The translations under genes were made by a program, and so were the position numbers. DNA of 64,000 bases from a virus. Position 1 is the stretch's first letter. Every line of letters begins with the position of its first letter. Below the pieces are notes generated by a model, which saw only the letters and a list, made by a program, of their open reading frames with translations, was not told where the DNA came from and searched no databases. The DNA is taken from positions 1 through 64,000 of IMG/VR virus record IMGVR_UViG_3300025133_000073; one strand, written 5' to 3'. Shown piece by piece: positions 8,301 through 25,600 of the stretch.

Positions 8301-9677
8301 ATTATCATCATAGACACCTGTAGAGAATTTCTCTCTTAGCTCAGGAATCCGTGATAACACCTGTTGTGCTTGACTTTCGGCATGTGCCAGGAAGTTCACA
8401 ATTCCCATTGTGGTAGCAGCAGGATGTTCAGCAATACTATCCTCAGTACCGTTAAAATAATGCTTTGCAAGCATTTTACGTACCTTTTCTTCTTTCTCAA
8501 CGAAGCCTGATTTACCTCGTCTGTCATTGTAAAGGTTGATCTTTCTTTTGATCACAGTGATCGCTTCATGAAGTTCTTCTCTGAGGTTATTCAATACCGC
8601 AGAATGCTCGAACATTGAAGGATCGATAGTAAAGAAGTGGTCAGTAGCTACCTTCTTCTGATTGTCAAAGGTCTTTTGAAGCATCCGTGAATCAGATATT
8701 GCAGCTTCCGAGATAGAATCAAGTGTAGCACGTATCTTACGTCCTTTCGCTCTATCAGATGAGCTGAACATTGCAACGAAACGAGCCCAGATACGTCTGA
8801 GTTTGCGTAACCACTTGGGAGAAGTGTCCTGTACAGCATTGATAAGGCTGTCAGACATCATCTTACCTAAGATCTCCAAGCGTACCTTGCTCTCATTGTT
8901 GTCATACTCCTTCATATACTTCTGAAAGTCTCTTTTCCACTCCTCGGTGGTATGTATATTGGCAAGAGCGTCCTTTACAATAGGGTCACCCTGTAAGGCA
9001 AATAGAATGAAGTGAGCTGTCTCCTCAGGAAGAGTATGTAGGTCTGCACTACCTTCTTTTACTGCAATTGATTTCCTGAACATATCAGCTACAGCTACAG
9101 CATTGAGGGTCTTTTTGAATTTAGATTCATAATACGATCTGTATGCCTCAAAATCCTCAAATGCAACACCCATCTGATCAAGGATGTCCTTCATCTTAGC
9201 ATCTACTTTAGGATCAGCAGGTGTATTCACAGGGTCAGAATCTTTTTGAAGGAATTCTCCTGCGTCCTTCTTACGGACATTATCAGCCTCATCATATGAA
9301 GGATATATATCACCTCCGTATTCATACTGTCCCTGTCCTATAGGTCTGACTATGGGAACATCAGGAGAGGGAGCATCATGTAATTTAAGGTACCATATCT
9401 CTCTACCTCCTTGTCCTGAGGTCTTTGCGCGATGCTTGGTAACTGCAGGATATTTCATCTTGGTATTCAACTTTGCGATACCTGTAGAAGCGGCAGCAAA
9501 CCCATGTTTTGTGATATAGTATATTCCCTTATACTTCTTTATACCTACTATCTCACGGACCATGTCTTCAACAGACTTTTCCCGTTTCTGTACTTGACCT
9601 GCAAGTGCTCCATAGTAGTTCACAAGGGATCTCTTATCCTTGAATGTCTGTCCGTTATATTTATATACGCAGCTCAT
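5343..9677 (-). CDS. Large virion cargo/ejection protein (1444 aa) with degenerate zincin-like domain and hydrophobic C-terminal region
   Basis: Last gene of the RNAP-containing cargo cluster. MSCVY start, TLPEETAH...E motif, hydrophobic segment FSSYLVLSSAGAILASLAG near the C-terminus. Confidence 0.75.
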   Translation of the reverse strand: MSCVYKYNGQTFKDKRSLVNYYGALAGQVQKREKSVEDMVREIVGIKKYKGIYYITKHGFAAASTGIAKLNTKMKYPAVTKHRAKTSGQGGREIWYLKLHDAPSPDVPIVRPIGQGQYEYGGDIYPSYDEADNVRKKDAGEFLQKDSDPVNTPADPKVDAKMKDILDQMGVAFEDFEAYRSYYESKFKKTLNAVAVADMFRKSIAVKEGSADLHTLPEETAHFILFALQGDPIVKDALANIHTTEEWKRDFQKYMKEYDNNESKVRLEILGKMMSDSLINAVQDTSPKWLRKLRRIWARFVAMFSSSDRAKGRKIRATLDSISEAAISDSRMLQKTFDNQKKVATDHFFTIDPSMFEHSAVLNNLREELHEAITVIKRKINLYNDRRGKSGFVEKEEKVRKMLAKHYFNGTEDSIAEHPAATTMGIVNFLAHAESQAQQVLSRIPELREKFSTGVYDDNLNDMATLVREMSQYISVFKPIVNSLSQHIIPYMNRVENDPIDPNGAKKLLPALETLKHAIHEINDGINVMEEDYMDYSKNLMAASARPYFVRRHTGHPDQDKLVEKNMEEYLESLSITFSDLNAKNRHMDSMANSKDDVLMVMDRLVKQTIEDAQLDTYDDSRDIIDHHEKLLSAGISNTDFMYEVHDGQYTRNFVTRYNMYKYDKAKNKFFDDLNKKYGLPVKGDDPKVWASREKKLSNMASSDPNKFADYNLEIKEWFEENTDPNPDWAKIGERKLRDIRKSFITFDKDIEFVEHMRKKHPKTWIREIHANNPTLARRERAAYIAWVDWYNERYVEIHDGISFRREFAVPKEALYGNKQYDRIMENPAMKAYYEGVMTKRKKLLHHMSDEYRNSTIAPQFRKDSIERLKNDPKRVLSKFASDTLTITEDEYDRGNVTLDENDKEIMKIPIFNFKPIEDVNDMSLDFSAGMILLAETANRHRNLSQIQDLVEISGDVLRERTIGTGRKGGGTFGRDEKVGKGGEAYARYMKYVEMTFYGRQKKDEGKIAGTSLDKAKVVDAINRYSSLNSLALNIYSGINNVMLGNLLMFQESFAKEFVDHDDLKYAEKKYWGSHQDGISGLLGDVGNLTSSNRLRLFVERFDILQDHENRMREVNTDRARFSRMFNTSTLFFVNHIGEHHMQVRLGIALMHRMKVKDANGDTIPFYEAFEVKDNRLVLSKGITHPDGRPVTKEDIIAMRLRIKGINQRLHGIYNVNDRSAMQQYAAGRLVILFRKWMIPWFNRRFDDHYYDYSIESEFEGMYRTFAHFMTMMYKELRSDQYTFASVTQGQWDKLSSMQKANMRRNLVEFSSYLVLSSAGAILASLAGDDDDNWSLNMLAYQVNRLATEFGVFIPVLGTSETLKIIKSPAAAVNQIDGIMRIAGSVRPVAGPLTGEDIFPTYKTGINKGRYKIGVAVQKAIPVVDNVNDIFTPEMRLKYFISAY

Positions 9678-11746
9678 TAATCGAATTTAATAATATCAAA
9701 ATTAGTAACTGGATTATAAAGAGAGAACTTTTTATTACCTTCCTTAGCTTCCTTTTCATATGCTCCTATCACACCTTCATAGGTCTTGTATTTACGAAGA
9801 CTATTAGGTACATTCCCAGTGTTATGTGAGAATATTGCAAGTTTCCATAATTCATTGTTGGTCAGTTTAACCTCCTTATCGTTCTTTTGGATCTTTGCCA
9901 AACGTGAGTAACTGTCCAAGAGCTTCAATTGTACAGCTTTGACGGCTGTCTTAGCACCAAGATGTCCTATATCTTTAAGATTGGATTTATTGATACCATA
10001 ATAATCTCTCTGCTCCTTTGAAAAGTTAGTTCTCGGTTTCGTACGACTTGGTCCTGCAGAAGCTTCTTCACCTCCGAATGCCTCACGCATATCAGCAACG
10101 GGACCAAGTAGATCACGGACCCATTTATAATACTTCAGTGTACCTCCTCCGCTTTCCTGATTGATTATCAGTACAGAAGCTCTCATGAGTTCCTGCTGAT
10201 TCTTGTATGATAGATCAATTCCCTCAGCATTTGCGAGCTGTGCAGAATAATGCTTGGCATATCCCGTCATTACATTCATGTCGGTGGTCAAAAGAGCTGA
10301 ATCAGAATTCTTTATACCTTCCACATTATTCATCATTGAGGTATATTGAGACATCTTGATCTCTTTAGAGAAGTCGTCATTGTTGGAAGCAGCGTGTATG
10401 ATAAGACCATTCTTGTTCTTACCTGTAATGAGCTGTTCAAGAGGGGTACGTTTAATACCTCCATATTTATGCATTACAAACTTTTTACCTTGCGCATCTT
10501 CGACAATATAACCGAAATGCGAACCAGGCGTCTGATCACGAGTATCATCCCATGCCTCATTGGAAAAAGAACTTCCTGGATTATAGATGTTCACTACAGA
10601 AGTAGGAGAAAGACTCTCAAGGATCTCTCTTCGAGCAGGATCTTTAGGATCAACTGCAGTTTCCATAAGTGTATCTATCACTTTCCCACGTCGTGAACGT
10701 GCTCCCATTTTTACATCGTATGATTCCTGAAGCTTTTTCCGCTCAAACTTTCTAAGCTTTCTTCCTGTATCAGGGTGACGCTCTCCAAGGTCAAGTTCTG
10801 TCTGCACCATGAACTCTGTCTCTTCAAGGGACGTTATAGAAGGCATACGATTGTTCTCATTGAATATGGACCATACCTTTCTATACTGATCAGGCATGTG
10901 TTCCATTCGTTCCCATGCATCTCCTGTAGTAGAAGTAGGTTTGTCTATTTTGATATCATACTTATTTATCAGTTCATCACATACAAACTTGGTACACTGA
11001 GGTCCTACAGCATCTGAAGCATTTTCTGGCTTCTCTGTAAATTGTTTTCTGCCTCCTTTGATCGTACCTACCTTATTGGCACCTATTGAGAACTTAGCAG
11101 GATCAATATCGTCAGACTCTTCAAAACCCTCTACTCCTGTAAGCAGCCTATCAGGTTCAAAGTAATTTATCATGGCCTCACCTGATTCATTTGCGTTGAT
11201 GACAACTTCAGGAAGATTAGTAGTCATGGATAAATATTCTCCGTCTTCGTCAAATGATTCACCTGCGACATTCTTATAATTGTTCCCATCCGCAATAGAA
11301 GTAGGTTTCCCTTGTAAAGTTCGTTTATGCAGTCTTCTCGCTTTTGCTTGGTTGTATACCTCATCCGTAGAAGCAATATCAAAATTACGTGTTTCATCAG
11401 GGGTATTGACCCATTTGTCAAAGTCAAAATCCTTAACATCCTGAATGACACCTTCTGTGGTCTTCTTGGTTTCCTTATATATATCTGAATCTTTGACAGC
11501 ATTTATCATTCTGAAAAACGGATTCTTATTCTCAGGATCAGGTTGATTCTGTATTACAGAGCCATCCTGAGCAATAGAAGCAGCCTTAGGAAGTCTTGAT
11601 ACTTCACCATCAACACATTCATTGCATCCTGACTTTATGAGTGATTTGATATGAGCAACCTTTCCTCTTGGAATGATCACAATATCCCCATGACTGTTAC
11701 GAAGAGCGATCTCTCCTCCCTGTACTTCTACTTTAGTCTGTGCCAT
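9677..11746 (-). CDS. Virion cargo protein with putative NlpC/P60(CHAP)-like and lysozyme/SLT-like peptidoglycan hydrolase domains
   Basis: GPQCTKFV...GDAW...SHFG...VMH (Cys-His papain-like pattern). C-terminal IINQESGGG...SAGPS...AIFSHNTG (lysozyme-like ES...G...Y/HN-G pattern). Confidence 0.6.
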   Translation of the reverse strand: MAQTKVEVQGGEIALRNSHGDIVIIPRGKVAHIKSLIKSGCNECVDGEVSRLPKAASIAQDGSVIQNQPDPENKNPFFRMINAVKDSDIYKETKKTTEGVIQDVKDFDFDKWVNTPDETRNFDIASTDEVYNQAKARRLHKRTLQGKPTSIADGNNYKNVAGESFDEDGEYLSMTTNLPEVVINANESGEAMINYFEPDRLLTGVEGFEESDDIDPAKFSIGANKVGTIKGGRKQFTEKPENASDAVGPQCTKFVCDELINKYDIKIDKPTSTTGDAWERMEHMPDQYRKVWSIFNENNRMPSITSLEETEFMVQTELDLGERHPDTGRKLRKFERKKLQESYDVKMGARSRRGKVIDTLMETAVDPKDPARREILESLSPTSVVNIYNPGSSFSNEAWDDTRDQTPGSHFGYIVEDAQGKKFVMHKYGGIKRTPLEQLITGKNKNGLIIHAASNNDDFSKEIKMSQYTSMMNNVEGIKNSDSALLTTDMNVMTGYAKHYSAQLANAEGIDLSYKNQQELMRASVLIINQESGGGTLKYYKWVRDLLGPVADMREAFGGEEASAGPSRTKPRTNFSKEQRDYYGINKSNLKDIGHLGAKTAVKAVQLKLLDSYSRLAKIQKNDKEVKLTNNELWKLAIFSHNTGNVPNSLRKYKTYEGVIGAYEKEAKEGNKKFSLYNPVTNFDIIKFD

Positions 11747-14700
11747 CTTCTGTTGCTTTCTTTACTAATGTTCCTCCTACTAAGAATGGTGCTACGGCAT
11801 ATACAGACTTTAAAAGTTTCTTCAGGTCTTTAGCACTTCTTCGACTTACTAATTCTGTAATATCATGATGTGCTGTAGAATGCTCAGTACTTGCGGTTTC
11901 TTTTTTCAACTTCTTTATCATACCATCAGTAATCTCATCACCATGATCCCATAGACCTAACTTTTTCAGATGATTCAGCGTTCGTACACCTCTTACTTGT
12001 TGTTCTCTATCGAGATCAAGATATGCTTGAAAATCTTGTTGAGAAGGACTTCCATATGTAGGATCTTTTTTCATTGGAATACCTCTAAAAGCTTCTTCTT
12101 CTCTTAACCATGCTGATGAATGAATCATTTCATGATTTATGTCCTCTTCTAACTTTTTAAGAAGCTCAGGAGTGAGTTCGCCACCGTCATATGATAAATT
12201 AATATCACTACCTAATGAAGTACCTTCCTCCTTTAATCGTGAAGGATCAATACCTTTAGTATCTCTCCATTGCACTTTTGCATTTTTAAGTTCTTCAATC
12301 ATTTCTTTCTGTAACGCCAATGCTTGCTGAGGAGTTTCGTCAGGTACAGCATTCATTCTTCGTGTTAACCATTCGTCAGAACGTAACCATTTAAGATGCG
12401 TCTTTCGTCCTTTTTCTACAATATTTTGTAATTCTACCGATGGAGTTTTTAATACAGGAAAGTCAGCTAACGGTATTTTATAAGCATTTTTCATTGAAGC
12501 ATTGAATTTTTTAGTAACAAAAGCTGGATCGACATTTTTATGCAAGTGCTCCCATGTCATTCGAGGAAGTCTCGTCATTTCATATATCTCATCATCTGGA
12601 AGTTTTAATAGGTCTTCTATGTCTTTTGGAAGAACTATATCATCAAGTTTATCAAATTTACCAACTTTAGGGCGAGATTGATAAATATTAGGATCAGCCA
12701 TATCAAATTCTCCACTATTGCCCTTAGCTGATTTGACAAAGTTACCAGGTCTATTATTTATTATTCTGACATTTCCTATTCCGCTATCGTCAATATCTCG
12801 TAACTTAACATTGTCAATTCCCTCTTCAACCATATATTCGCCTATCTCATCAGTTGACGTACGCCCTTTCCTCCATGTATCTGGTCCAAATCTCTTCTTT
12901 ATATTCTTTGCTACGTCATTATCTAAAGGACGAGGAGCATTTAAAAGACCTTCCATATACTCTATTGCTTCTTCTCCATTAAATATCGAGTCCTCTAATT
13001 CTTTTAATGTCCACCCATTCTTATCTACTTTCTTTCCAGACGCTTTCATTTCTTCAATTGATTTTTTTCTAATATCAATCACTTCCTTTTGCCTCTTTAT
13101 GTTATATATATAGTCCCTGTCTTTATAAGTACTTTTATGATTAACATCCAAATGTGCCCAATTCTGACCTCTAAGGTCAAAATCTGCAGAATTATCAGAG
13201 TTCTTCAGATAAAGCTCATTGACACCGCCCCCTTTATTATCCGCTCCTTTTATTATTTCTTTCTTGCTATGTGGAGCGTAATTACGAGCTAAATCTTTAT
13301 TCTCACTTGAAAAAAGAAGTTGTCCTTTTTCTGGTCGATCAGACTTAGTTCCTCTATAAACAACATCTGCATCATCAGGAAAAGCCTTCTTGAAATTCTT
13401 ACTTCTCTGCTGTACAAATTGTTCAGGACTGCCTCTAAAATCAGAACCGTCAGCATTCTTCATCCAAGTACCGTCAGCTTTTGTAGTAGCTTCTATGGTA
13501 TTGTATTCTTTCATCAGAGCTTTGTTCTTAGGGATCTTCTTATTCCATTTACCCCAATTTATCTCAGATGCAAATTTCTTTGAAGCGTTGGCCTTATGAA
13601 GCAGACCACTTGCCTGAGAGAACTTACCCACCTTCATCAAATGTCTAAATTTAGCAGCAATACCAATACCTGCAAAATTAGTCAGGTCTGTAACCATATC
13701 AGCTATAAAGCCCGCATCGTTCTGTTTACCTTTTAAACCATCCGTAAAATTGTAATTAGTGCCGTCAGCGTTTTTCCAATCAGTAATACCTAATGAATTA
13801 AGTAAACCCTGCGCAGGTTTAGATACTACCCCTCCTGCACCTTCAAGAGCGTCTAATACAGTAGCATTTTCATGTTCTTCTTCTGTATATCGTTTATTCT
13901 TAGGTCCCTTTGGTACTCCTTGTGCATATGTACCTGTTCCCATACCTTCATCTATCTTATCCCAATAGGTCTTAGAGGTCTTATCCCAAGCTATACTACC
14001 TGTAATATATTCCTGTTCTTTATCAGAGAGAGATGCCATATATGCCTCAGCATCGGTATTTCTGTCATAAGGTTTGCTTTTAAGAATCTGTTTACTCACT
14101 TGTTCTTTTACATATGTATCCCGTTCAGTATTATGCATAGCTTCCAATACGTCACCTGTAGCAGGATCGCCGTCTTTAAACCAAACAGAACGTTCAAATT
14201 TTGGATATTTCTTTATAGCCTTCCTTTCTGCTGTGAGCCATTCGGGAGCTACGTCAGAAGCAATAGCCTCAGGCTGCGTCCCTCCTGAATATATAGGATC
14301 AGTATTATCTTCTATTTCATCAGAAGCAAGTACAAGACCTTCTTCTGCAGACATGGTACCCTGCTTATTGGTAAGTGATATGCCACCCTTTTTGCTTACA
14401 GCTATGTCAATACCTCCCTGTGCGTGAGATTTGCCTTTGAACTCTCTTACTACTCTCCAATCTCCTCCTGGAGTAAAACCGAACTGTCCTCCATCTGCCA
14501 TGCATGGATTACCTGTCTGATCATCTACAAGTTGAGCCTTTCCTGTACTTAGAAGTCGTTGTATATTCGCTTCATCTATAGGATTGACAGTTTGTGGAGA
14601 GTCTTTCGATGCTTCCTTCTTACCGAATAGAACGTGTCTCTTTTCCGCATAGGCATATTCAGATAGGTCCATGACATATGCGCTTGCTGAATTTGTAAGT

Positions 14701-17700
14701 CCTCCTACAGAAGGTGCGTATTTGAGTGTCACACCATCTATCTTCTTCATTGCGTTATACAAAGCACCTATTTCATAAGGTTTATTGCGAGTAAACTGCA
14801 ACATGGTACGTGTCCATCTGTCTTTGATGTTCTTCCATGATTTGAATGCCTGTTCAGTATTTGCAGCATTCTTATCCACATAACTTCTCGCTTCTTTTGC
14901 AGCCTGTCCTGATGTAGTAAAACTTTCCACATCTATACTTGGATCATTTTGCAATATCTGCTTCCATGCGTCTAACTTAAGAGGTTCTACAACACGATTG
15001 AGTTCTGCATTGAATATTTTATCATACGCTTTCTTTGACATGATCTCAACACTGCCTGTGCCGTCAAGTCTATTATATTCTCCTGACATCGGATCTATTG
15101 CATACTGCATGTTTCCCACAACAAAATAGTTGTACGGAACTATCAGTTCATCAGGACCTGCATAAATAGCAGCGGTCTGAGTATTACTTTGAAGATGTCT
15201 TGTAGCATCAAATCCTGAAAACAATAAAGGAACATGCTTTCCATTCTCCTTAATATGCTTCTTGATCAGATGATGCACCAAAGGTGTAAAATAGGTCATA
15301 TACTTATCAAGATCAGCTACTTCTTCCTCAAGCATGGTATCAAGATCGATCTTCACATTCTGCTTTTTCGATTCTCCTAACTCCATCACTTCTTCAGGAG
15401 TTGCATTACTTCTATTATTGAATTGAGCATTGACAGCTTCATAAGCTGCTTCACGTGATCTGAAAGTAGAGTAAGGGATCAAAGAAGATTCCCATTGTTC
15501 TGTAGCACCTGCAAAAGGAACCATAGGCATTTTTGATATACTGTTCTTCAGTAATTTTTCTCTTTCTCCTTCAGTTGAAAGTAATTCAGGTCCACGGGTC
15601 TGAAGACCTGCATTGAGGACCTCAAGCATTGAATGAATACTCTTCATCATGGTCTCGAATGTAGAAAAGTCCATCAAGGAAAGATTCTCTTTACTCTCAC
15701 GGGCAGCAAGATTCAAATTAAGTCTGAACATCTCATCCTTTCTTACTTTAAGAAGTCTGTTCAACTTGTGAGTAATTATAGGAGCCTCCATGGATAACGA
15801 TGATGTCAGCGACTTCGCCTTTCGTCGTTTTTTAAAGGATATACCCATGTTCGTATCTCTCTCAGCTGTCACTGCGGTAGGGGTAGAGAATCCATGTAGA
15901 TCAAGATTGTGCTTACCATAATCTCTTCTCATTCGTTTGATCGCCTCTTCTATCATTTCTGTATAGATCTGATCATCGATCTCAGCATGAGGAGTATAAT
16001 CTTCAGGATTTTCACGCCTCGCCAATGCGTCGTATTCATAATTATCAAGTTCATGCTCAGTAAAAAATTCCTTAAAGCCTCCTCTATTTACGATGGTTGC
16101 CATTCGTAATTTAGCATTGAGGATCGCATTGATCTGCCCCTGTTTTGTCTCTCTTTCTTTAATGAGAATCGCATTATCTCCCATTAGATTCATATCCTCT
16201 TTAGCGCGGTCAATAGCTATTGAATAAGAACTATGCATGTCGGTAGCATCTGTTACGATCCCCTTCATATGTTCCAACATATCAGAAAACGCTCTCTCAG
16301 GTCCCAACATATCAGCAGTTATATTCTGAAGTATTGATGACCATGATATAGGAAAGTATTTTTGAGCGACCATATGTAGAATTTCAGATGTAGGTACAGG
16401 GGTGATATCCCGTTTATTACCCTCAGTTCTGATCAGATCTTTTATTACCGCAACCTGTCTGTCAACATCCGCAGTAAATGTGCTTGTCATTCTTTCAACC
16501 TGCGATTTGCTCATGTCAGCACCGTCACGCTCTCTACGTTTCATCAACAGATACTCAATGACATCACTCTGGATCTCATGTAACATCACCTTCTTATTGC
16601 CTACATTATCCTGAAAAGGAGTAAGTGATCCCCATGCGATAGGTCCTGATTTCCAATGCTTTCCTAATAAGTTATCGCTTTGGTATTCAAGTTTTGCATC
16701 ATTGAATCGTATCGAGATCTTAGAATGCCTGGTTTCAGGAGTTATGTTACTGAATGCGTTACTGATCCCATAGGTACTCCACGCAGGATTGATGTCGAGC
16801 TCCGATAAGAACCCTAACTCCCAATTCGCTTGAAGATAATTATGCGCTTCATTCACAAATTCTTCTGCAGTAATGGTCTTCATATTAGGATTCTCATCCT
16901 TGATCAACTTCTGTACTTCAGTAAGGATCTCCTTCTCAGGCTTTTTCATTCCATCAACACTGATAGGTGATGACAGTGAAATAGGATTCTTCGCATACTT
17001 CTGCAATAAAGCAGGAAACACCTTTAATGTAGGTGTGACAGATTCATATTTCCCCTTCGCTTTCTCTTCTTTTGAGAGATCAACTGTCTTAACTATGTTA
17101 TTTGACCCATAAGAAGCAGGATTGAGACTCCTGAGTCTCTCAACATGTTCAGGAATACGATTGGTAGTAAGCTTGAACAACTTATCAAGAGTTCTATTCA
17201 TGAATTTAGACCTCTTCTTAAAGTATGTGGTCATCCATTTTTTATTATGCCTATTTGCTTCTTCTGCTCTTAATACTGCTTCTCTCTGTCTTTCTGTATA
17301 TTGAGGAATGTTCTCAGTGACCCAATTTATCATCTCAGTAGATGTATGGAATACATGAATATCTGATTTACCATTCACCTGTAATTTGTAAGAATTATCA
17401 TTGGTTCCTGATATTTTGGATACCTTAATAAGGTCTTGAATATTATTCAATGCATCAGAAACGTCTATAGACCCTCCCGCCTGCAAGCTGTCCCATAATG
17501 CGTCATTTTCTTCAGGTGATAATAGGTCTGAAGTGTCATTGGCAAGTATCTTGATCGCAGCAACATGCACTGGGTCAGAAGTAAATAATGACTTTGCCAA
17601 TGCGACAAGCTCTCTCAACGTCTTTATGAATTTCTGATAGAAAGAAGAAGGCTTCGCACCATGTACGGTCTCAAGACGTTTTATCTCTTCTGCAATGACC

Positions 17701-19658
17701 TGTCCTATTGCTTCTTCTAATAGGGCATTTAGCGCAGTACTACTATTTATCATAGAGCCCACTTTAGAAAGACCTCCGTTGTAACGAGGATCTCTTTTAA
17801 GCTCCTCATATTTTGCTAAGACCTTCTCATCTATCTTAAGAGCTTTTGCTAAAGGATGTCCTGAATTAGCAATAAGAGAATACCACCAGTGAGCAGCTTC
17901 CTCAGGAAGTTTATTCCATGCTTCGGCTCTATCGCTATCAAGTATATCAACTGTTCTGTCTATGAAATTAGCTGCCGCAATAGCATCTTCCACAAGAGTA
18001 CCGTCAGTGCCTGAAATACCTTCTACGAGTCTTATATCTACTCCTATGGCATCAAGGAAAGAGGTCATATTATCAAGAGTATTCAAATGAAACTCAAGCT
18101 TCTTATCATCTGTAGTATCAATGCCTGCAGGATCCTCAATTATCTGAGCAATGTTTCTATTTGAGTCCAGAAAACGTTGTGATGCTTTTCCTATCATGTC
18201 CTCATTCATACTATGTGTAGGCATTCCCTTTACTATTGCTCTATTGATCATCGTAGGGAAATGCTCCATCAAAGTGCTCATTTTATTCCAAGGACCGTTA
18301 GGACGGGGATAAGATATTTCACGAACGAGAGGCTCATGTCTTTCCATGATAGTGTCTCGATTCTCCAAGATCTTCTTGTGATCCGTACTCGTGATCTCAT
18401 GTAGTGAGATTATACTCGCTATCCTAAGCTGAGTACTCAATATCATTGCGACATCATTATTGGAAAGACCAACATTGAAAGCATGTGCCGTTGTTTCAAG
18501 CTCTGATGCGTATGTGAACTTCCTTGTAAGAATATCCTTGACCCGATTGATATTATCCTTGTCTGAACTATCGTTCGGAACAGGTTTCGTATAATATTGA
18601 TTGGCAATTGATACAAGAGAAGGTTTAGACATTAGAGAAGTCGCACTCAATGCATCTGGATACGCATCATTCTCCCACTGCTCCATTACATCATTGATAT
18701 AAGGTATTGCCTCAGGAACATAATGTCTGAGATTGTCTATCATCATTATCTGAGCAATTGTAGTATGGTCAGATGGAGTATCTGCCAATAGATCATTACT
18801 CCCACTCAATGCGTCAGCTACCGATTCAAGAATGATACTCATTCTATCTCTCACTCTTATGACAGTATCTTCATTTATACCATCTTCCCTCGCTTCTGTC
18901 GTATAACCTCTTCTAAGAACTTTTATATGCTCATTGAACCAGTTATCGACCTGAGGCAGTCCAAGGATGTTTGTAGTGGTCAGAACAGAAAGCGCATCTT
19001 TCAGCGACTCAGGAGCGACCTTTCTGAATTCACTTAAAGGGTTGCGTACGGTACTCTCAACGAGATCAGTAACGATCTCTGTCCCATATGTACTTGCAGC
19101 TGTAGTGCCTAATATGTGCTCACCACTTGGTACAGGAACCACATTAGCAGGATTTTCTATGATCATCCTCTTCAGTTCACTTGAAGAAACCCTACTTAGA
19201 GATAGTTGCAGGTAAGGAAATTCCATTGGACCATCTAAGATCAATGCATCTACATTGGCATCTGTATATCGGGCTTTTATAGTTAACATCTTAAGCTTAT
19301 TGAAACGAAAGCCGTCAATACTTCCTGGTTTCTCTTGGAATGTAGGGTTGCTCTTAGCGAATGGTTCCCTTCTTTTGCTTTCCTTATCAATAATGTAGCT
19401 GCTCTCAACATATTTTCCAGAATTGAACTTTTCAGAAATATAGTCTCTTTCTTCTTTTGAGATCTTAAAACCTGTTGATTGAAAAGTTTCAGCAAAGATC
19501 CTATCATACATTTTGTCAATGTACTTATCAACTATGTGCATAGGCGGAACCTCTTCACCATAGTGAATGAATACCTTATAGGCATTGACATCACCGAGAG
19601 ATGACGATAGTGCTTCCCACTCCTTTGACGTCTTTACGGGGCATGATCTTGCAGGCAT
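11733..19658 (-). CDS. Polyvalent virion cargo protein (2641 aa): degenerate zincin, EIQSD domain, ART-PolyVal-like domain, C-terminal HExxH zincin
   Basis: N-terminal SCP..KEW..L. Motifs LPEEAAH, LHEIQSD, GKSHAQGGI, VVYRGT...LFSS...ARNYA...VKSAKGNSGEFD...PNIY, and NHEMIH...EQQVR. Confidence 0.7.
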   Translation of the reverse strand: MPARSCPVKTSKEWEALSSSLGDVNAYKVFIHYGEEVPPMHIVDKYIDKMYDRIFAETFQSTGFKISKEERDYISEKFNSGKYVESSYIIDKESKRREPFAKSNPTFQEKPGSIDGFRFNKLKMLTIKARYTDANVDALILDGPMEFPYLQLSLSRVSSSELKRMIIENPANVVPVPSGEHILGTTAASTYGTEIVTDLVESTVRNPLSEFRKVAPESLKDALSVLTTTNILGLPQVDNWFNEHIKVLRRGYTTEAREDGINEDTVIRVRDRMSIILESVADALSGSNDLLADTPSDHTTIAQIMMIDNLRHYVPEAIPYINDVMEQWENDAYPDALSATSLMSKPSLVSIANQYYTKPVPNDSSDKDNINRVKDILTRKFTYASELETTAHAFNVGLSNNDVAMILSTQLRIASIISLHEITSTDHKKILENRDTIMERHEPLVREISYPRPNGPWNKMSTLMEHFPTMINRAIVKGMPTHSMNEDMIGKASQRFLDSNRNIAQIIEDPAGIDTTDDKKLEFHLNTLDNMTSFLDAIGVDIRLVEGISGTDGTLVEDAIAAANFIDRTVDILDSDRAEAWNKLPEEAAHWWYSLIANSGHPLAKALKIDEKVLAKYEELKRDPRYNGGLSKVGSMINSSTALNALLEEAIGQVIAEEIKRLETVHGAKPSSFYQKFIKTLRELVALAKSLFTSDPVHVAAIKILANDTSDLLSPEENDALWDSLQAGGSIDVSDALNNIQDLIKVSKISGTNDNSYKLQVNGKSDIHVFHTSTEMINWVTENIPQYTERQREAVLRAEEANRHNKKWMTTYFKKRSKFMNRTLDKLFKLTTNRIPEHVERLRSLNPASYGSNNIVKTVDLSKEEKAKGKYESVTPTLKVFPALLQKYAKNPISLSSPISVDGMKKPEKEILTEVQKLIKDENPNMKTITAEEFVNEAHNYLQANWELGFLSELDINPAWSTYGISNAFSNITPETRHSKISIRFNDAKLEYQSDNLLGKHWKSGPIAWGSLTPFQDNVGNKKVMLHEIQSDVIEYLLMKRRERDGADMSKSQVERMTSTFTADVDRQVAVIKDLIRTEGNKRDITPVPTSEILHMVAQKYFPISWSSILQNITADMLGPERAFSDMLEHMKGIVTDATDMHSSYSIAIDRAKEDMNLMGDNAILIKERETKQGQINAILNAKLRMATIVNRGGFKEFFTEHELDNYEYDALARRENPEDYTPHAEIDDQIYTEMIEEAIKRMRRDYGKHNLDLHGFSTPTAVTAERDTNMGISFKKRRKAKSLTSSLSMEAPIITHKLNRLLKVRKDEMFRLNLNLAARESKENLSLMDFSTFETMMKSIHSMLEVLNAGLQTRGPELLSTEGEREKLLKNSISKMPMVPFAGATEQWESSLIPYSTFRSREAAYEAVNAQFNNRSNATPEEVMELGESKKQNVKIDLDTMLEEEVADLDKYMTYFTPLVHHLIKKHIKENGKHVPLLFSGFDATRHLQSNTQTAAIYAGPDELIVPYNYFVVGNMQYAIDPMSGEYNRLDGTGSVEIMSKKAYDKIFNAELNRVVEPLKLDAWKQILQNDPSIDVESFTTSGQAAKEARSYVDKNAANTEQAFKSWKNIKDRWTRTMLQFTRNKPYEIGALYNAMKKIDGVTLKYAPSVGGLTNSASAYVMDLSEYAYAEKRHVLFGKKEASKDSPQTVNPIDEANIQRLLSTGKAQLVDDQTGNPCMADGGQFGFTPGGDWRVVREFKGKSHAQGGIDIAVSKKGGISLTNKQGTMSAEEGLVLASDEIEDNTDPIYSGGTQPEAIASDVAPEWLTAERKAIKKYPKFERSVWFKDGDPATGDVLEAMHNTERDTYVKEQVSKQILKSKPYDRNTDAEAYMASLSDKEQEYITGSIAWDKTSKTYWDKIDEGMGTGTYAQGVPKGPKNKRYTEEEHENATVLDALEGAGGVVSKPAQGLLNSLGITDWKNADGTNYNFTDGLKGKQNDAGFIADMVTDLTNFAGIGIAAKFRHLMKVGKFSQASGLLHKANASKKFASEINWGKWNKKIPKNKALMKEYNTIEATTKADGTWMKNADGSDFRGSPEQFVQQRSKNFKKAFPDDADVVYRGTKSDRPEKGQLLFSSENKDLARNYAPHSKKEIIKGADNKGGGVNELYLKNSDNSADFDLRGQNWAHLDVNHKSTYKDRDYIYNIKRQKEVIDIRKKSIEEMKASGKKVDKNGWTLKELEDSIFNGEEAIEYMEGLLNAPRPLDNDVAKNIKKRFGPDTWRKGRTSTDEIGEYMVEEGIDNVKLRDIDDSGIGNVRIINNRPGNFVKSAKGNSGEFDMADPNIYQSRPKVGKFDKLDDIVLPKDIEDLLKLPDDEIYEMTRLPRMTWEHLHKNVDPAFVTKKFNASMKNAYKIPLADFPVLKTPSVELQNIVEKGRKTHLKWLRSDEWLTRRMNAVPDETPQQALALQKEMIEELKNAKVQWRDTKGIDPSRLKEEGTSLGSDINLSYDGGELTPELLKKLEEDINHEMIHSSAWLREEEAFRGIPMKKDPTYGSPSQQDFQAYLDLDREQQVRGVRTLNHLKKLGLWDHGDEITDGMIKKLKKETASTEHSTAHHDITELVSRRSAKDLKKLLKSVYAVAPFLVGGTLVKKATEDGTD

Positions 19659-19659
19659 A

Positions 19660-22600
19660 TTATAGGTCTATATTATATTCTCCATCTGAAAGGTTGTCAC
19701 CACCTTCACATCGTTCCTTCCTTTCCTCAGCTTCCTGATCAGGTATGGAACTGATATCATATTCATCTGTCTGAGTTCTGTTATCTTCTGTATTATCGTT
19801 CACAAAGGCCTTGTACTTAGCATTGAACTCCTTAACGTCGTATTCGCTTTCCATATTAAGGATCTTTGCAACCATCTTACGATGAGCATCCACCCTTGCT
19901 ATTACTCGGAATACATCCTTAGGTTTCTTACTACCTCCTGCCTTAGCAGATGATGCTGTCATGATCTCATTCAGTTTTGTCAACATTGCAGGAACATCCT
20001 CAGGAACTGCATTCTCCTCTCTTATTCTTTCGTTTATTTCATTTCGTAACTGCTTACGCTCACTTATGAATAATGACTCAAGAGGCATCTTTCCATCAGC
20101 ATGGATCTTTGAGAGCTCGTAGAACATGTTATGAGCACCAAGGTCTGTCACTTCTACATATGTTGCAGAAGCAGGGGACTCAGGTGTCTTGAAGAAATAG
20201 TTCATGTTCTTCAACATTACTGTAGCAGTGTTGTTACCCCGTCGGACATTAGCCTGTATATAAGTTACAGGTTCATCTTGATACCTGCCTGTTTCTTCAT
20301 TCTTATATTTAGGATCAAACGGATGAGGCTTTCTCATAAGAGGTTTAAGACTCTCTTCTGAATAAGTAAGTAGCATCATTCCATTATTATCAAATTGTTT
20401 ATTTGAAGCTTCTGATATGTCCACATACGGTACAGTATTCAATTTCTTGTGTACATTACGGAGTATCTGCTCAATATAAGCACTGTACTCATTATAAGAG
20501 TAAGAAGAATTGAAGTTGTCATGCAGGTGCTCAGTAAGTGTCTTTCCATCATCTGTTACAAGTTCACTAAGATACGAAGGAGGGATCAGATTTGAAAATG
20601 TATTGAATCTGAAGTTATAACCTGAAGCAAAGAAAGCATATTCAGCAAGTCCGAATGCGATCTCTCTATCTGCTCTGTTTCTGGAGCTCATCATCTGCTT
20701 CCATTGTCGTTTGATCATTTCACGACCCATATCATCTAACCCTTCAATATCGAATTGTATCATTTTGAAAGGAACAGTAAGGTCGGTTTCATCAATTGCA
20801 TCTACTCTAAAGTTATTAATGAACAGGGAATACGGACCTTCTTTCTGTAGGGTCTGATAATCCTGAAGAGTATCTGGGAAATTTCTCAAACGATCTTCCA
20901 TGTTTGCGGGGGCGTACTCTGTAAAATCCGTAGCAAGTAAGGTCATCATCATTCTCCATAGAGTATTGATCTCAGGAGCCTGCAGTCTCTTACTTGATGA
21001 GTTCCATCTCATTATTGTGATGATGTCATCAAATGCACTGTTCGGTCCTGCATAAGGGATCTTAGCTACTTCTCCTATTATATCACTGGCTGCTTTTACT
21101 CCATATTTATAGAACACTTTCACATGGGGAAGCATTGTAGGATCACTAAGATATTCTTCAAGTCCTATCATCTTCTTACCTACGTTTTCCATTCTGACCA
21201 TGTCCTCCATGAGAATCTTAGTATCAGCAACACTCGGTCCTGCTGCACGTTTGATAGAGTCGAATCTCATACCTGCCTGCACATCAGACAATATTTTAGC
21301 AGATTCCATTGCTCTACTATAGAAGGTCAATACTTTATAGCGCATATACAGATCGTTAACGGTCATGTCCTTCATAGGAGTCTTTCCTAACTTGATCTGA
21401 TCAAAGAGTGTCCCTGTTATCTTAGTGTTCACAGGATCGGTCTTATATGCCAACAGGTCTTCTTTCGTAGCATTGAACGTAAGATCTGAAAGTCTCTTGT
21501 TCTTTATCTGATCATAAAGGTCGTCCATTGCTGAATTTCCAAAGTTGTCCATGATAGCATCTCTGGTCTCAGCAATAGAGGACTTCAAAAGCTCCTTGAG
21601 AATATGCTCTCCCTTCTTTTGAGAAGCATTGTATTTTTTGAATACGTCCTTGATAACAGGTTGAATGAATACAGCCATGGATGCTATCGGATCATGAAGA
21701 GTACGTATCATCGTATCAAGTATGTTAGCATTGGTCACATTCAGATTAAGTGTTCCTGCCAAAGGAAACTTAGCGTTATCAACAGACTGCGCAAGGTTCT
21801 CAGATATACCTGATAGAGCTCTTATTGTCTTACCGTTACTATCAACACGTTCTGCTTTATTCAAGGAAGCCCCTGTATGTCCATTGAATACGATAGGGGT
21901 ATCAAATTCAAAATCTGTGAACAGTGTAAGTGTATGATTGGAGTTATGACTCGCATGAATACCTACAAGGTCAAGACCTGTCATATTTCTATCAAATACC
22001 TCGCGGGAAGTTGAAAGAAGCATTGGATTAAGAGAATATACCTCATCAGATGATGTAGTATCCGTAAAGTCTGCCATCGCTTTCAACGTATTGAAGTTAC
22101 CTGGAGACAATTGCTTTGCTGCAGTTGATCTGTGAGACAATATCGCCCACATGATATCGATCAGATAGTTGTCACGTGACTTCTTGGTATCAAATGATGA
22201 AGGCACCTTGACAAGCTCTGAATGAAGTCGCCATTCGTCACGTTTTTCATCCCATACGTAATTACGTCTATTGGCAAAGTTAGCTCTTGCAAGACCGTCA
22301 TCGTAGTCTTCAAAGTCTTTGAACATCACTTTTTTACCCTTACGAGTGGTCTGTTCAGTACTGATAAATGTCTGAAACTCTGCTTCAGCACCTGATACTA
22401 CTTCTCCATGTTGATTGGTGATATTGTATAGCATCCCATAGACCTTATCGATGTCAAAGTCAAGTCCTGCTATGGTAGTAACCTCATCAGGCATGATTAT
22501 CTGACCTGCTACCCATGACGGTAAGTACTCTATGACCTTAACATGGAACATTGAATAGTAATCCTCAGTAGGTATACGGGCGAATATTCCCATTGTAGCT

Positions 22601-25600
22601 GCTTCACGAGCACTTTCAGGAAGATATTCAGGCTTTATGATGCCATCCTTATCTGCATACTTCTGCATCCATCGTGCTGAAGCAGGCATAATGACCTCAA
22701 AATACTTTATGCTTCTATAAGAAGGTGAGTTGGGATCATTATCAAACTTAATTCTTGGTTTACGCTTACCTGACCATCCATAGGAAGGAGCGTTATAAAG
22801 AGCTGCACCATTGATCTTCTGTCCAGTAACGTTGTTCTTGAAGAAGGAGTTCATGATCTGCTCAACACGTGATACTATGACGGGATGCCAAAGAGGAAGT
22901 ACCGTATCAGTACGATTCTCATCTGCCCAATCAAGAGCTTCCATCATGCTGTCACCGAGTTTACGGTCAAGTACTTCTGAACGCAATGTATTCAACGTTT
23001 TGGTGAGATCAGGATTTCCGTTCTCATCTCTGAACATCTTAACGAGCTCATCATAGGATTCTTCGACATTCTTTGTGATGAGGGTATTATATATCTCAAA
23101 TATCTCAGCACCTGTCATTTCTGTGCCGTCCACATCATATTTGGTATCAACATCATTGACATCGATATTCTCCATCATCAGTTTTCGTACCTGAACTCCG
23201 AAACGTACCTCTGCATCAAGGTGTTTAGCAGGGGTCGGCTGCTGAATACCGTAATCAGCATTTCGGTACTGAATAGCGTTGTCCCCAGTGATCTCATCAA
23301 GATTCCTAACAGGATCTATCTGACCGAGCTTAACTGCAGATGTGAACATTATGACATCTGTCATACGATTCTTTCTGTCGAATGAATGACCTCCATCGCT
23401 CTTGAATGTCCACCCCATCTTTTCCAGTGCTTTCTGAATGATAGGATTACCTTTCGCCATGTCAGGAGAGACCATGAACTCAGCGTTCTTGTTCTGTACA
23501 GGATATACACGCCCTTCCTTACTGAACATGTGCTCATAGAAGAAAGGTTTCAATGGACGGAATGTGACAGCAGCATTTGAAGGAAGTTTTTCTCCCCTTA
23601 TCTGCTTCTCATATATCTCATCATGAGCATCTGTCCATAGTGCTGTGCCTACATATATATCACGTAGTCTTGCTACATCTATCCATGTGGCACCATCAGT
23701 AGGATCAAGCTTACGGAATTCATTCACTACGGCATTGTCTCCGCCGTTCTCTGGAAAGATATCTTTGATCGCACCTATATGTTCACTTTCTATATCATTG
23801 GTCTCAGAAGGATCGTACATATACGACACGTTGTAAAACTCAGGCACATGCACTTTTGTTCCATCAGGCTTCTCATAATAAGCGTTGTCATCAACTGCAA
23901 TGAGATCCCTTGGTGACCATAACTGTTTTATACGTTTATAAGTATCAGTAAATTCAGTAGTTCCTTGTTTTACTTTTTTTACTACCTCACTATCAGACTT
24001 AAGAGGTTTGACAGATTGGTAATATGCTGCATCAAGACCGAATGTCCAGAATAACTGAAGATTCATATACATCTGATTATAGATGTAATTGACAATGTTC
24101 GCATCGAAATGATCCATGAACCTTGTGTCAATAGTACCACTGTTATCAACAGTGATCTTTTCAACCTCTCCTGTCTCTTCGTTGGTAAATTCTGCAGAAC
24201 TGAAAAGCCCTTCTTCTGCCATTCTACTATACTCACTACGAGCTGTCTTCTCAAGTTCTGCAAGTACGAATAACTTAGAAGCTCCATGTACCTTGAATGT
24301 CTTATCATTCATGAATGTGAACACCTGATATCTATGTCCCTTCTTAAGCATTTCAAGAGGAATGTCCTCAAGTCCTGCAGGAACAGGTTGTTTCATGCTG
24401 TCCTCATCGGTCAACCACTCAGAAAGAGCAGCCTGATGAGGTGCTACACGCTCGTTGAACCACTCGATACGGGCTTTCTCCTGCATTACACTTCGATACA
24501 ATAGAGCCTTTGCCTGTTCATTTGTGAACTTCTCAAACTTCATGAATGCAGCTGATGGTGAATCAGCAAATACAGGCATCATGTAATGAGCATATTTGGA
24601 CTTTTCATTTTCACTTGGCTGAGTATTATACCATACATTGATCTTGAATGCCTCAAGTTCAGTACGGGTCATCTCAGAATACTGTTTGTCACTATTGGCA
24701 TCACCTTGTTTTGTGAATCCGTCCATTACTTTAAGATCCATGTTCTCAACTGCGGATGCTTCTTTCAATCTATTGAGAAATGGAGACTCTGCGAAGAACG
24801 GATCCTTCTGATAACGCTCAATGAATGCCATTCTATCCTTCTCAGGTTGTTTTACCAACTTTCTGAAGAACCTTGACATGAACCGTGATTGTAGGAGTCC
24901 ATATGTAGAAGTGTTCTTTACTGAAAGAAATGATGGTTCAAATATTTCAGGTATTGCCTCAAGAACGAGACCTGCCATATTATTGAGAGCTTTCTTAGTT
25001 CCCAGGTCGTTAGCATTTGAGAAGAACGGATCCTTACCTACTGCTATAGCACCAAGAATGTCTCCGAGTCCTTTGGAAGATGCAGTACCTAAGAACTGCT
25101 GCATTCTATAAGCACCTTTGGGACCGATGAATATTTCCTTCACTTCGCCATAGAGAATGTCAATTCCTACGTTTTCAAGCATTGTATATACCTGATCCAT
25201 GATCTCCTCACTTACAGCAGCGTTCTCATTGGAAGAAGTATCTGTCATGAGTTTAGAGGTTAATTTATCAATCGTTTCCAGATCAACATTAATATCGCCT
25301 CCGTACACTATCTCAGCTTTAGAGACATCATATCGGTCAGAATTTCTTACTGACTGAGCCCATCCTTTGACAAGATTCTTAACTCCTTTTGTTCTATTGG
25401 AATCAAATATGGATACATGACCATTTCTTTTCATATTTACACCCAAGAACAGTGTATTCTCACGCTGTCCGAAGTTCTTCCAGAATTCACTTACAAGGTC
25501 TCCATTCTTAGTGAGAGTATTGTAGATGTCATTATATCGTAGATTGACAGCAATGAGAGAATCAAGTTTTCCCATCATATCATCTACACCACGGGAACCT

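Follow-up and report, generated by a model that had tools for sequence, protein, structure and literature searches.

An ART-like module and a rare zincin-like module at a variable junction of a probable polyvalent cargo protein from a marine crAss-like phage

Introduction

Polyvalent proteins were described by Iyer, Burroughs, Anand, de Souza and Aravind in 2017 (PMC5512222) as giant multidomain polypeptides, encoded together with virion genes, in which unrelated enzymatic domains are combined and shuffled among proteins. In this class the ADP-ribosyltransferase (ART) is the commonest protein-modifying domain and the zincin-like metallopeptidase the commonest hub domain; delivery with the phage DNA is predicted, and the metallopeptidase is proposed to process the injected polyprotein. 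Here we analyse a 2641-amino-acid (aa) protein, P0001, encoded within positions 1 to 64,000 of the IMG/VR virus record IMGVR_UViG_3300025133_000073, the 64,000-nucleotide (nt) stretch that we call the window. An original prediction, made from the letters of the DNA alone, had proposed that the C-terminal third of this protein is a virion-injected, colicin-like effector cassette with an ART-like domain and a zincin. Like the polyvalent proteins, P0001 is a giant product of a late operon and has modules of both kinds. Unlike them, it has neither module in a form that Pfam models derived from PMC5512222 detect; the ART-like module reads R / F-S / D(N) rather than H-Y-D/E, the zincin appears to belong to a separate, rare family, and the scaffold is apparently Gp49-like and of Crassvirales, a context that PMC5512222 does not mention ('crAss' has no occurrences in it).

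Several other systems bear on the interpretation of the locus. The cargo proteins Gp47, Gp49 and Gp50 of phage crAss001 (Bayfield et al. 2023, PMC10172136) occupy the same operon position as P0001. Gp49, to which the core of P0001 is transitively related, was detected in crAss001 virions by mass spectrometry, and in the authors' model it is ejected through the tail partly unfolded (PMC10172136). It differs from P0001 in being 1349 aa long by its annotated coordinates and in having no counterpart of the C-terminal add-on (tblastn, 50,697 phage records). Alt of phage T4, as summarised in passages of PMC5512222 and PMC9503650, is a capsid-carried, injected ART of the R-S-E type that modifies host proteins at the start of infection. 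It would be a functional analogue of the role proposed here and likewise has an Arg in strand 1, but it has no detectable sequence relationship to P0001, is a stand-alone protein of the Alt/VIP2 clade and retains the catalytic Glu. RES-domain toxins, in work cited in a passage of PMC9503650, are R-x-N ARTs that phosphorolyse NAD+ and are active with Asn in place of the catalytic Glu. They share with P0001 an Arg in strand 1 and an Asn at the acid position; since this likeness lies in residue configuration only, it is a lead and not a sign of membership.

Results

A conserved core is followed by a variable C-terminal region

P0001 is encoded by a minus-strand open reading frame (ORF) that stays open for 2641 codons (Table 1). 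In the reading that we consider probable, it is a polyvalent virion cargo protein in which a Gp49-like core (aa ~500-1700) meets, at a defined junction, acquired and mobile enzyme modules. Fifteen homologues of the core, 1528-3565 aa in length, have aa ~500-1220 and 1443-1700 in common with P0001, and an alignment-based profile of the core retrieved eight related viral loci (L019-L026), which a search with a single core piece did not match. In all eight loci the block '...GGYLVDLSNYNYNTPVLYGL', corresponding to aa 1658-1685 of P0001, is the last to be conserved, and the core ends near aa 1685 with '...LYGL'. Beyond this point relatives have different sequence or none, as listed in Table 1, while the gene order of 3680-aa-like protein, core and g1444-like protein is kept in L019-L026. 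Because the sequence after the core differs among relatives, the junction is a hotspot of module gain and loss, and the alignment of homologues bears out the proposal of a swappable payload, hypervariable past the '...LYGL' end, on a conserved scaffold. Payloads on other core homologues comprise LysM, Zeta toxin/AAA_33, a HEVGH zincin and an H-type ART. In L020 (3-7187) and L026 (2-7762) the junction zincin reads TVLHEVGHGF, and the core and the g1444-like protein form one ORF of ~2400-2600 aa.

The far side of the add-on can be placed with the homologue P0015, in which sequence resembling the N-terminus of g689, the product of the gene downstream of P0001, follows directly after THKSGG. The add-on thus interrupts what is elsewhere one contiguous sequence; in this phage ~860 residues (about aa 1780-2641) and a stop/start overlap separate the two pieces. 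Since aa 5-87 of g689 match the tail of P0015, g689 resembles either a continuation of the scaffold that has been displaced or a further module insertion, and the variable region spans aa ~1716-2641, possibly with g689 included.

The modules themselves are mobile: the ART-like and the zincin-like modules are each found separately in many unrelated giant phage proteins. With both of them on a conserved core, P0001 has the two or more unrelated, shuffled effector-type domains that characterise a polyvalent protein.

Table 1. Features of P0001 and its neighbour g689 (window positions), and sequence past the conserved core in relatives
Feature	Residues	Position	Strand	Remarks
Whole ORF (P0001)	2641 aa	11733..19658	-	giant, in late/virion operon, directly downstream of the 3680-aa vRNAP-bearing protein
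Last conserved core block	aa 1658-1685	14604..14687	-	equals '...GGYLVDLSNYNYNTPVLYGL' of relatives, which diverge completely downstream
xGG joint (MADGG) and [ST]HxxGG mini-domain	aa 1717-1780	14319..14510	-	recurs in P0015, P0019, P0022 and other giant phage proteins
Orphan linker	aa 1781-2019	13602..14318	-	contains YSGG joint; ends in G/A-rich segment aa 1984-2004 (nt 13647-13709)
N-terminal ART adaptor	aa 2025-2094	13377..13586	-	SEINWGKWNK...GTWMKN...PEQFVQ...FKKAFP; 50-79% identity with canonical ART-PolyVal modules; AlphaFold2 pLDDT 70-83
R-type ART-like core	aa 2095-2306	12741..13376	-	R2102 (13353-13355), F2116-S2118 (13305-13313), Y2127, D2291 (12786-12788), N2296 (12771-12773); helical insert ~aa 2150-2280
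C-terminal ART tail	aa 2307-2327	12678..12740	-	KS..GN.G.FD...PNIY; fused directly to zincin-like module
HExxH...E zincin-like module	aa 2345-2614	11817..12626	-	HEMIH 12120-12134; invariant E2552 12003-12005
Terminal hydrophobic G/A-rich segment	aa 2615-2633	11760..11816	-	recurs at end of homologous zincin modules; disordered in model
g689 N-terminus	aa 5-87 of g689	11486..11734	-	matches P0015 right after THKSGG, E 4e-12, 37% over 83 aa
L019, L021-L023				protein ends 38 aa past core block; next gene is the g1444 homologue
L024, L025				after core, Pro/Ala/Ser linker, then g1444-like sequence in same ORF
L020, L026				after core, HEVGH zincin inserted ahead of fused g1444-like part
P0024				after core, P-loop kinase-like stretch and canonical YHGT ART module
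P0015				after core, xGG/[ST]HxxGG mini-domain, then at once sequence 37% identical to g689 N-terminus

The add-on differs from the core in base composition

Every motif on which the original prediction relied is present in the ORF in the order claimed: MADGG at aa 1720 (nt 14501), GKSHAQGGI at 1742, SAEEG at 1770, YSGGTQPEAIAS at 1790, LEGAGGVV at 1938, MVTDLTNFAGIGIAAKF at 1988, VVYRGT at 2099, LFSS at 2115, ARNYA at 2124, ELYL at 2148, GIDNV at 2280, IGNVRII at 2294, VKSAKGNSGEFD at 2308 and PNIY at 2323, followed by HEMIH. The AT-richness of 11750-13560, which had been proposed without being computed, is likewise real: its GC content is 0.356, and no other 1811-nt window of the 64 kb (mean 0.409, sd 0.018) is as low, making it the most AT-rich stretch of that length. 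Codon usage breaks in the same region. GC at third codon positions (GC3) is 0.35-0.36 over the first 1443 codons and 0.31 in the last core segment (aa 1443-1715), and it falls to 0.25-0.27 from aa 1716 on, in agreement with a change of character from MADGG; it is 0.235 in the ART-like core and 0.215 in the zincin module. For aa 2020-2641 the value is 0.243, compared with 0.344 +/- 0.042 for 622-codon windows of large ORFs, and five of the six lowest such windows come from the add-on region; as the windows overlap, this is an extreme value and not a formal probability. The add-on was probably acquired from another phage of lower GC content.

The break is not an artefact of assembly. DNA of the window (9000-20000) is present in marine metagenome runs of several studies (2017-2023); one 2017 run contains the complete stretch within a 24.4-kb contig at a word depth of ~67, whereas in runs X3 and X4 parts of the stretch have no cover. 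None of the sequencing runs listed was of RNA. Other contigs, one from a second run (13905-15496, 0 differences) and one from a 2023 study (14400-14611, 4 differences), bridge the join between core and add-on, which argues against a chimera. No DNA direct repeats were found flanking the add-on, hence nothing points to a recent insertion by a site-specific mechanism.

The ART-like module represents a divergent type

An initial search identified 12 giant proteins that share the ART-like segment at differing positions. A profile search extended the set to 151 proteins at E<=1e-5, in 118 of which 119 modules were delimited. All delimited modules share a ~70-aa N-terminal adaptor (SEIDWGKWNK..GTWMKN..PEQFVQ..FKKAF) and the tail KS..GN.G.FD..PNIYK, and between these flanks they fall into two types, 50 being H-type and 70, with that of P0001 included, R-type. 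H-type modules carry YHGS, G.YT, A..Y and an E/Q-V-x-P strand, which are the motifs of the published H-Y-D/E ART-PolyVal. Among the ten members of alignment A2, five match the ART-PolyVal model PF18760 (best E 7.4e-14), three also match DUF3990 and two PARP; the homologues P0010 and P0011 pass PF18760. In the R-type (n = 70) the signature residues are almost fixed, with Arg and Gly in 70 modules each, Phe in 67, Ser/Thr in 66, Ala in 67, Tyr in 69 and Asp at the position of D2291 in 69.

When the cores of the two types were compared with the flanks removed, hhalign aligned the first ~70 columns (Prob 76%, E 2.3e-5), pairing YRG with YHG, F-T with Y-T and the two A..Y helices with each other. 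This signal came only from the comparison of 70 with 50 sequences, the first small alignments having given insignificant values (Prob 0.1-2.7%). Of 30 ESM-Atlas neighbours of the module, 24 are PF18760 clusters, with scores of 0.90-0.91, a result that the shared flanks may drive. The module thus resembles PF18760 (Tox-ART-HYD2-related) in adaptor and tail, with 50-79% identity, and in the region of beta1, beta2 and helix, where YRG lies on YHG, F-T/S on Y-T and A..Y on A..Y. It differs in escaping the hidden Markov model, in having Arg for His and Phe for Tyr, in a helical insert of ~130 aa, in a C-terminal half that cannot be aligned, and in an Asn in the acid column with an invariant Asp five residues upstream. 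On these comparisons the N-terminal half of the module is homologous to canonical ART-PolyVal, and the match claimed in the original prediction holds at the level of the family (shared flanks, hhalign, ESM-Atlas) and not as a direct match to PF18760.

The active-site columns of the H-Y-D/E configuration are occupied in P0001 by R2102, F2116 (followed by S2117 and S2118) and N2296. The usual catalytic Glu had been reported as not obvious, and N2296 indeed occupies the aligned acid column. Inactivity does not follow, because all residues invariant in the subtype are kept; D2291 is the best candidate for the catalytic acid of the R-type. Nor is the pattern that of the R-S-E clade: R2102 and F-S-S are present, there is no [QE]xE, and the strand-5 region reads D-D-S-G-I-G-N-V. 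Neither PF03496 nor PF01129 matched the 2641-aa protein. We read the R-type as a genuine, divergent sister of ART-PolyVal, with Arg in place of His and Phe-Ser/Thr in place of Tyr.

Two apparent links to other proteins were discarded. The PF03496 match of P0121, considered as a bridge between R-type and R-S-E ARTs, lies outside its R-type module, and with the A2 profile the only matches among PDB sequences were coiled-coil noise (PI3K p85 inter-SH2), for which the helical insert is responsible.

ART modules of this kind are almost confined to viral sequence, occurring in 18 IMG/VR loci and, among 185,579 species genomes, in only four weak loci, all on contigs of metagenome-assembled genomes. 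One protein, P0002 (3306 aa), has two ART-type modules, one of the His type (PLVHHS, aa 838-1055) and one of the R-type (aa 1093-1439), and continues with a region similar to the zincin module and with LysM and YkuD domains.

The zincin-like module defines a rare family with an invariant putative metal site

An exhaustive phmmer search with the zincin-like module, taken with its terminal segment as aa 2345-2641, found 21 proteins among 1.84 billion representatives, one of them the window's own. Nearly all the other matches end within ~10 residues of the C-terminus, in proteins of 361-2327 aa. No curated zincin model in Pfam or NCBIfam was matched by the query or by 13 family members, and a search of PDB sequences with the zincin profile gave nothing relevant. 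The module represents a rare new family of ~20 representatives. In 13 aligned homologues H2509, E2510, H2513 and E2552 never vary, and all four are present in 17 of 17 aligned sequences, P0002 included; the invariant residues of the family run W, S, D-E-W, R-R, H2509/E2510/H2513, G, E2552, R. The HEMIH...E motif noted in the original prediction is accordingly not a chance occurrence.

An AlphaFold2 model of the module has a mean predicted local distance difference test (pLDDT) score of 80.1 and a predicted template modelling score of 0.72. In it a helix and beta strands are followed by the helix with HEMIH (model residues 153-170) and by one at 206-222 with the downstream Glu (E208). HExxH on one helix with a Glu on the next long helix is the arrangement of gluzincins and predicts a metal site, and the order of secondary-structure elements in the model agrees with the description of the zincin core in PMC5512222. 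The fold matches of the model are weak but rich in zincins, the best being oligopeptidase or processing-type enzymes. A Foldseek search of BFVD also returned four crAss-like 'structural/morphogenesis' proteins at E 3-5e-3, which we take as helical similarity only: profile A1 finds nothing in cr108_1, and among the cr108_1 ORFs inspected (from the muzzle to the last giant) HExxH is present only in a 2967-aa giant.

Stereotyped joints separate the modules

In giant phage proteins the ART module is often followed by a stereotyped joint, in which ...PNIYK leads to a G/A-rich hydrophobic stretch of 15-20 aa and then to K/Q-x-GG. Among 109 modules with enough sequence after NIYK, the hydrophobic stretch is present in 97, xxGG within 60 aa in 98 and both in 93. 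The joint often continues with 'GG[IV]IKDD.GQW.HPGE[IV]T' or with [ST]HxxGG mini-domains, the latter standing behind xGG in eight further proteins of this set. MADGG and YSGG of P0001 are, by their sequence, joints of this kind, and the joint between modules is a candidate cleavage site, recombination seam, or both. P0001 has an unusual layout, in which the ART tail is joined directly to the zincin module and the hydrophobic stretch does not come until the C-terminus. Ahead of the ART adaptor there is a G/A-rich stretch (aa 1984-2004), the same as in L001 and L016.

The mini-domain region (aa 1715-1754) gave a sub-threshold Pfam match to Cbm74 (E 0.013), and the [ST]HxxGG mini-domain was uninformative in the ESM Atlas (top score 0.83). 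For the linker (aa 1781-2019) no homologue was found except a weak alignment with P0015. A hydrophobic hairpin and a terminal helix had been proposed for the add-on; these segments do include the third and the first most hydrophobic 19-aa windows of the protein, but their Kyte-Doolittle peaks, 1.24 for the G/A segment near aa 1984 and 1.34 for the terminal segment, lie below the membrane-helix threshold of 1.6.

Relation to the Crassvirales cargo block

The IMG/VR record is a linear viral contig of 75.4 kb, ~75% complete. TerL, portal and major capsid protein (MCP) are all present in the window, and the MCP is ~42% identical to those of crAss-like phages (cr85_1, cr108_1, IAS virus and Bacteroides, Flavobacterium and Cellulophaga phages). 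The occurrence of the DNA in marine metagenome runs shows the phage to be a marine crAss-like virus and not one of the gut; among crAss-like phages it is a distant one. One long minus-strand operon leads from the terminase gene (61075-63519) through portal, major head protein and tail genes to a block of very large genes encoding, in order, 1470, 702, 1030, 3680, 2641, 689 and 1444 aa.

The core profile A4 matches the last giant ORF (1714 aa) of cr108_1 at aa 169-305 (E 7e-6), and the same part of this ORF matches crAss001 Gp49 (E 3e-8). The P0001 gene sits in the late operon between the gene for the protein bearing the virion RNA polymerase (vRNAP) and those for g689 and g1444. From this synteny and the two-step chain of homology to Gp49 we infer that P0001 would be packaged in the virion and delivered from it.

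The 3680-aa neighbour (19660-30702, minus strand) has the motifs GLDFDIDK (aa 1376) and HEAFH (aa 2748). We take the former to be of the crAss virion RNA polymerase type, known from work on phi14:2 gp66. HEAFH has a counterpart in the 2967-aa giant of cr108_1 (HESFH, aa 1525); being conserved, it marks a second zincin in the phage, fused to the polymerase protein. Fusion of a zincin to the polymerase protein has been described for N4-like vRNAPs. Among other products of the block, the g702 protein (33797-35905, minus strand) contains FAQGG/YAQGG and MANGG/FAPGG pairs in tandem, a (PKD)n repeat around aa 510-530 and an N-terminal GGE-I motif resembling that of g689; g1030 has an endolysin-like C-terminus; and g689 (9677-11746, minus strand) has a weak YiiX/NlpC-P60-like match at aa 407-477 (E 0.018). 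No paralogy among the window's own giant proteins was detected by BLAST. Neither the core nor the 942-aa C-terminus matched any of the 50,697 phage records in tblastn searches.

Discussion

Our results favour a polyvalent cargo protein with exchanged enzyme modules as the probable nature of P0001, and a number of observations weigh against this interpretation. Searches of Pfam, NCBIfam, PHROG and PDB sequences with aa 1700-2641 gave nothing significant in any part. PF18760 (gathering threshold 31.2 bits) was matched neither by the whole protein, nor by a 346-aa piece (E up to 10), nor by the six-frame translated genome, so that the likeness of P0001 to ART-PolyVal is indirect. The last 75 residues of the R-type core do not align with the canonical type (hhalign E 0.41), the acid column varies across the R-type (D32/T15/N14/E3, with N2296 here), and an AlphaFold2 model of the ART module from a 10-sequence alignment has a mean pLDDT of 52.6, the core being below 50 while the adaptor and the long helical insert are confident. 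For the zincin module, fold matches are weak (Z <=5.5), in the range where the tool warns of a common arrangement, and Foldseek against the PDB returned nothing at E<=0.001. An ART module upstream of the zincin module was found in no other carrier, P0002 alone having an ART-like module followed by a similar region; since no ART stands beside the other zincin modules, a functional coupling of the two is unsupported by co-occurrence. Finally, core profile A4 gave no match when compared with crAss001 directly, which makes the cargo status transitive.

Could the add-on serve a structural or mechanical purpose instead, its ART-like part being a pseudo-enzyme or binding module and the whole region a part of the ejectosome or trans-envelope conduit, or packaging ballast? 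Such a role would agree with N2296 in a catalytic-acid column that holds D, T or N across the subtype, with a C-terminal half that cannot be aligned to canonical ARTs, with the hydrophobic G/A segments that follow 97 of 109 modules, and with the proposal that the crAss001 cargo proteins Gp45 and Gp46 form channels (PMC10172136). We nevertheless consider it unlikely, as R2102, G2103, F2116, S/T2118, A2124, Y2127 and D2291 are conserved in 94-100% of the 70 R-type modules, a pattern more in keeping with a maintained ligand site than with a spacer, the hydrophobic segments stay below membrane-helix hydropathy, and the metal site of the zincin is invariant. In another reading the payload would act on the cell envelope during penetration, the zincin-like module being a peptidoglycan or lipoprotein peptidase and neither a processor of the polyprotein nor a cytoplasmic effector. 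Proteins with ART-type modules often carry LysM, YkuD, SLT, glucosaminidase, VanY or PG_binding_1 domains (precomputed Pfam), the adjacent g689 is weakly NlpC/P60-like (YiiX), and the end of g1030 is endolysin-like. Against an envelope role, the zincin-like module has no similarity to the cell-wall metallopeptidases M15 and M23, its best fold matches are to oligopeptidase or processing-type zincins, and a recognised wall-binding domain was present in the aligned region of none of 20 homologues; we judge it to be quite improbable.

A colicin-like toxin cassette, in which a translocation or pore hairpin and cytotoxic enzymes cross the membrane unaided, is very improbable indeed. All that recalls such a toxin is the order of a hydrophobic segment followed by enzymes, together with two weak peaks of hydrophobicity, at aa 1984 and aa 2615. 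The searches detected no homology with colicin or pyocin domains, no Pfam colicin domain was found in the 2641-aa protein, and hydropathy reaches 1.34 at most, compared with a transmembrane threshold of 1.6. No candidate immunity gene lies downstream, g689 matching instead the scaffold sequence of P0015, and the modules are almost confined to viral contigs, as the count among species genomes indicates. The terms 'colicin-like' and 'translocation segment' of the original prediction therefore find no support. Its notion of a swappable effector payload fares better: the exchange of modules at the junction stands, and what it exemplifies is the known polyvalent strategy rather than a new kind of system.

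Under the polyvalent cargo reading, the lineage would have gained at the junction an xGG/[ST]HxxGG mini-domain, an orphan linker, an R-type ART-like module and an HExxH...E gluzincin-like module with a hydrophobic tail. The protein would share the capsid with vRNAP-associated proteins and would be extruded into the cell before the DNA enters. Its zincin might then cut the polyprotein at the stereotyped joints and so free the ART-like enzyme, which, early in infection, may use NAD+ for modifying a host target or may consume it. By the published model of polyvalent proteins (PMC5512222), the zincin is more likely to be a processing protease than an effector directed at the host.

A broader proposal can be put forward as speculation, though we think it rather unlikely to hold in full: Crassvirales and related Bacteroidota-type phages would run a polymorphic-effector exchange inside ejected cargo, in which the joints are both recombination seams and zincin cleavage sites, and the R-type is a distinct R / S-T / D clade of ARTs or a RES-like NAD+ degrader, delivered at time zero against NAD+-dependent host defence. 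In such an exchange system the modules may be bounded by adaptor...PNIYK, the hydrophobic G/A stretch and xGG/[ST]HxxGG, and inserted at a fixed hotspot past the Gp49-like core.

As the general principle dates from a publication of 2017, what the locus contributes is new members and a testable case and not a new concept. What is new here is the Crassvirales Gp49-like context, a defined hotspot, an R-type ART-like subfamily missed by PF18760, and a rare zincin family. Crassvirales are among the most abundant phages known. The locus described here shows a junction in the cargo block at which lineages exchange enzyme modules, and it adds two families missed by current models, an Arg-type relative of ART-PolyVal, numbering 70 members or more, and the rare HExxH...E module. 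Both modules are clonable candidates for an activity in early host takeover or anti-defence and for the proposed self-processing of polyvalent proteins.

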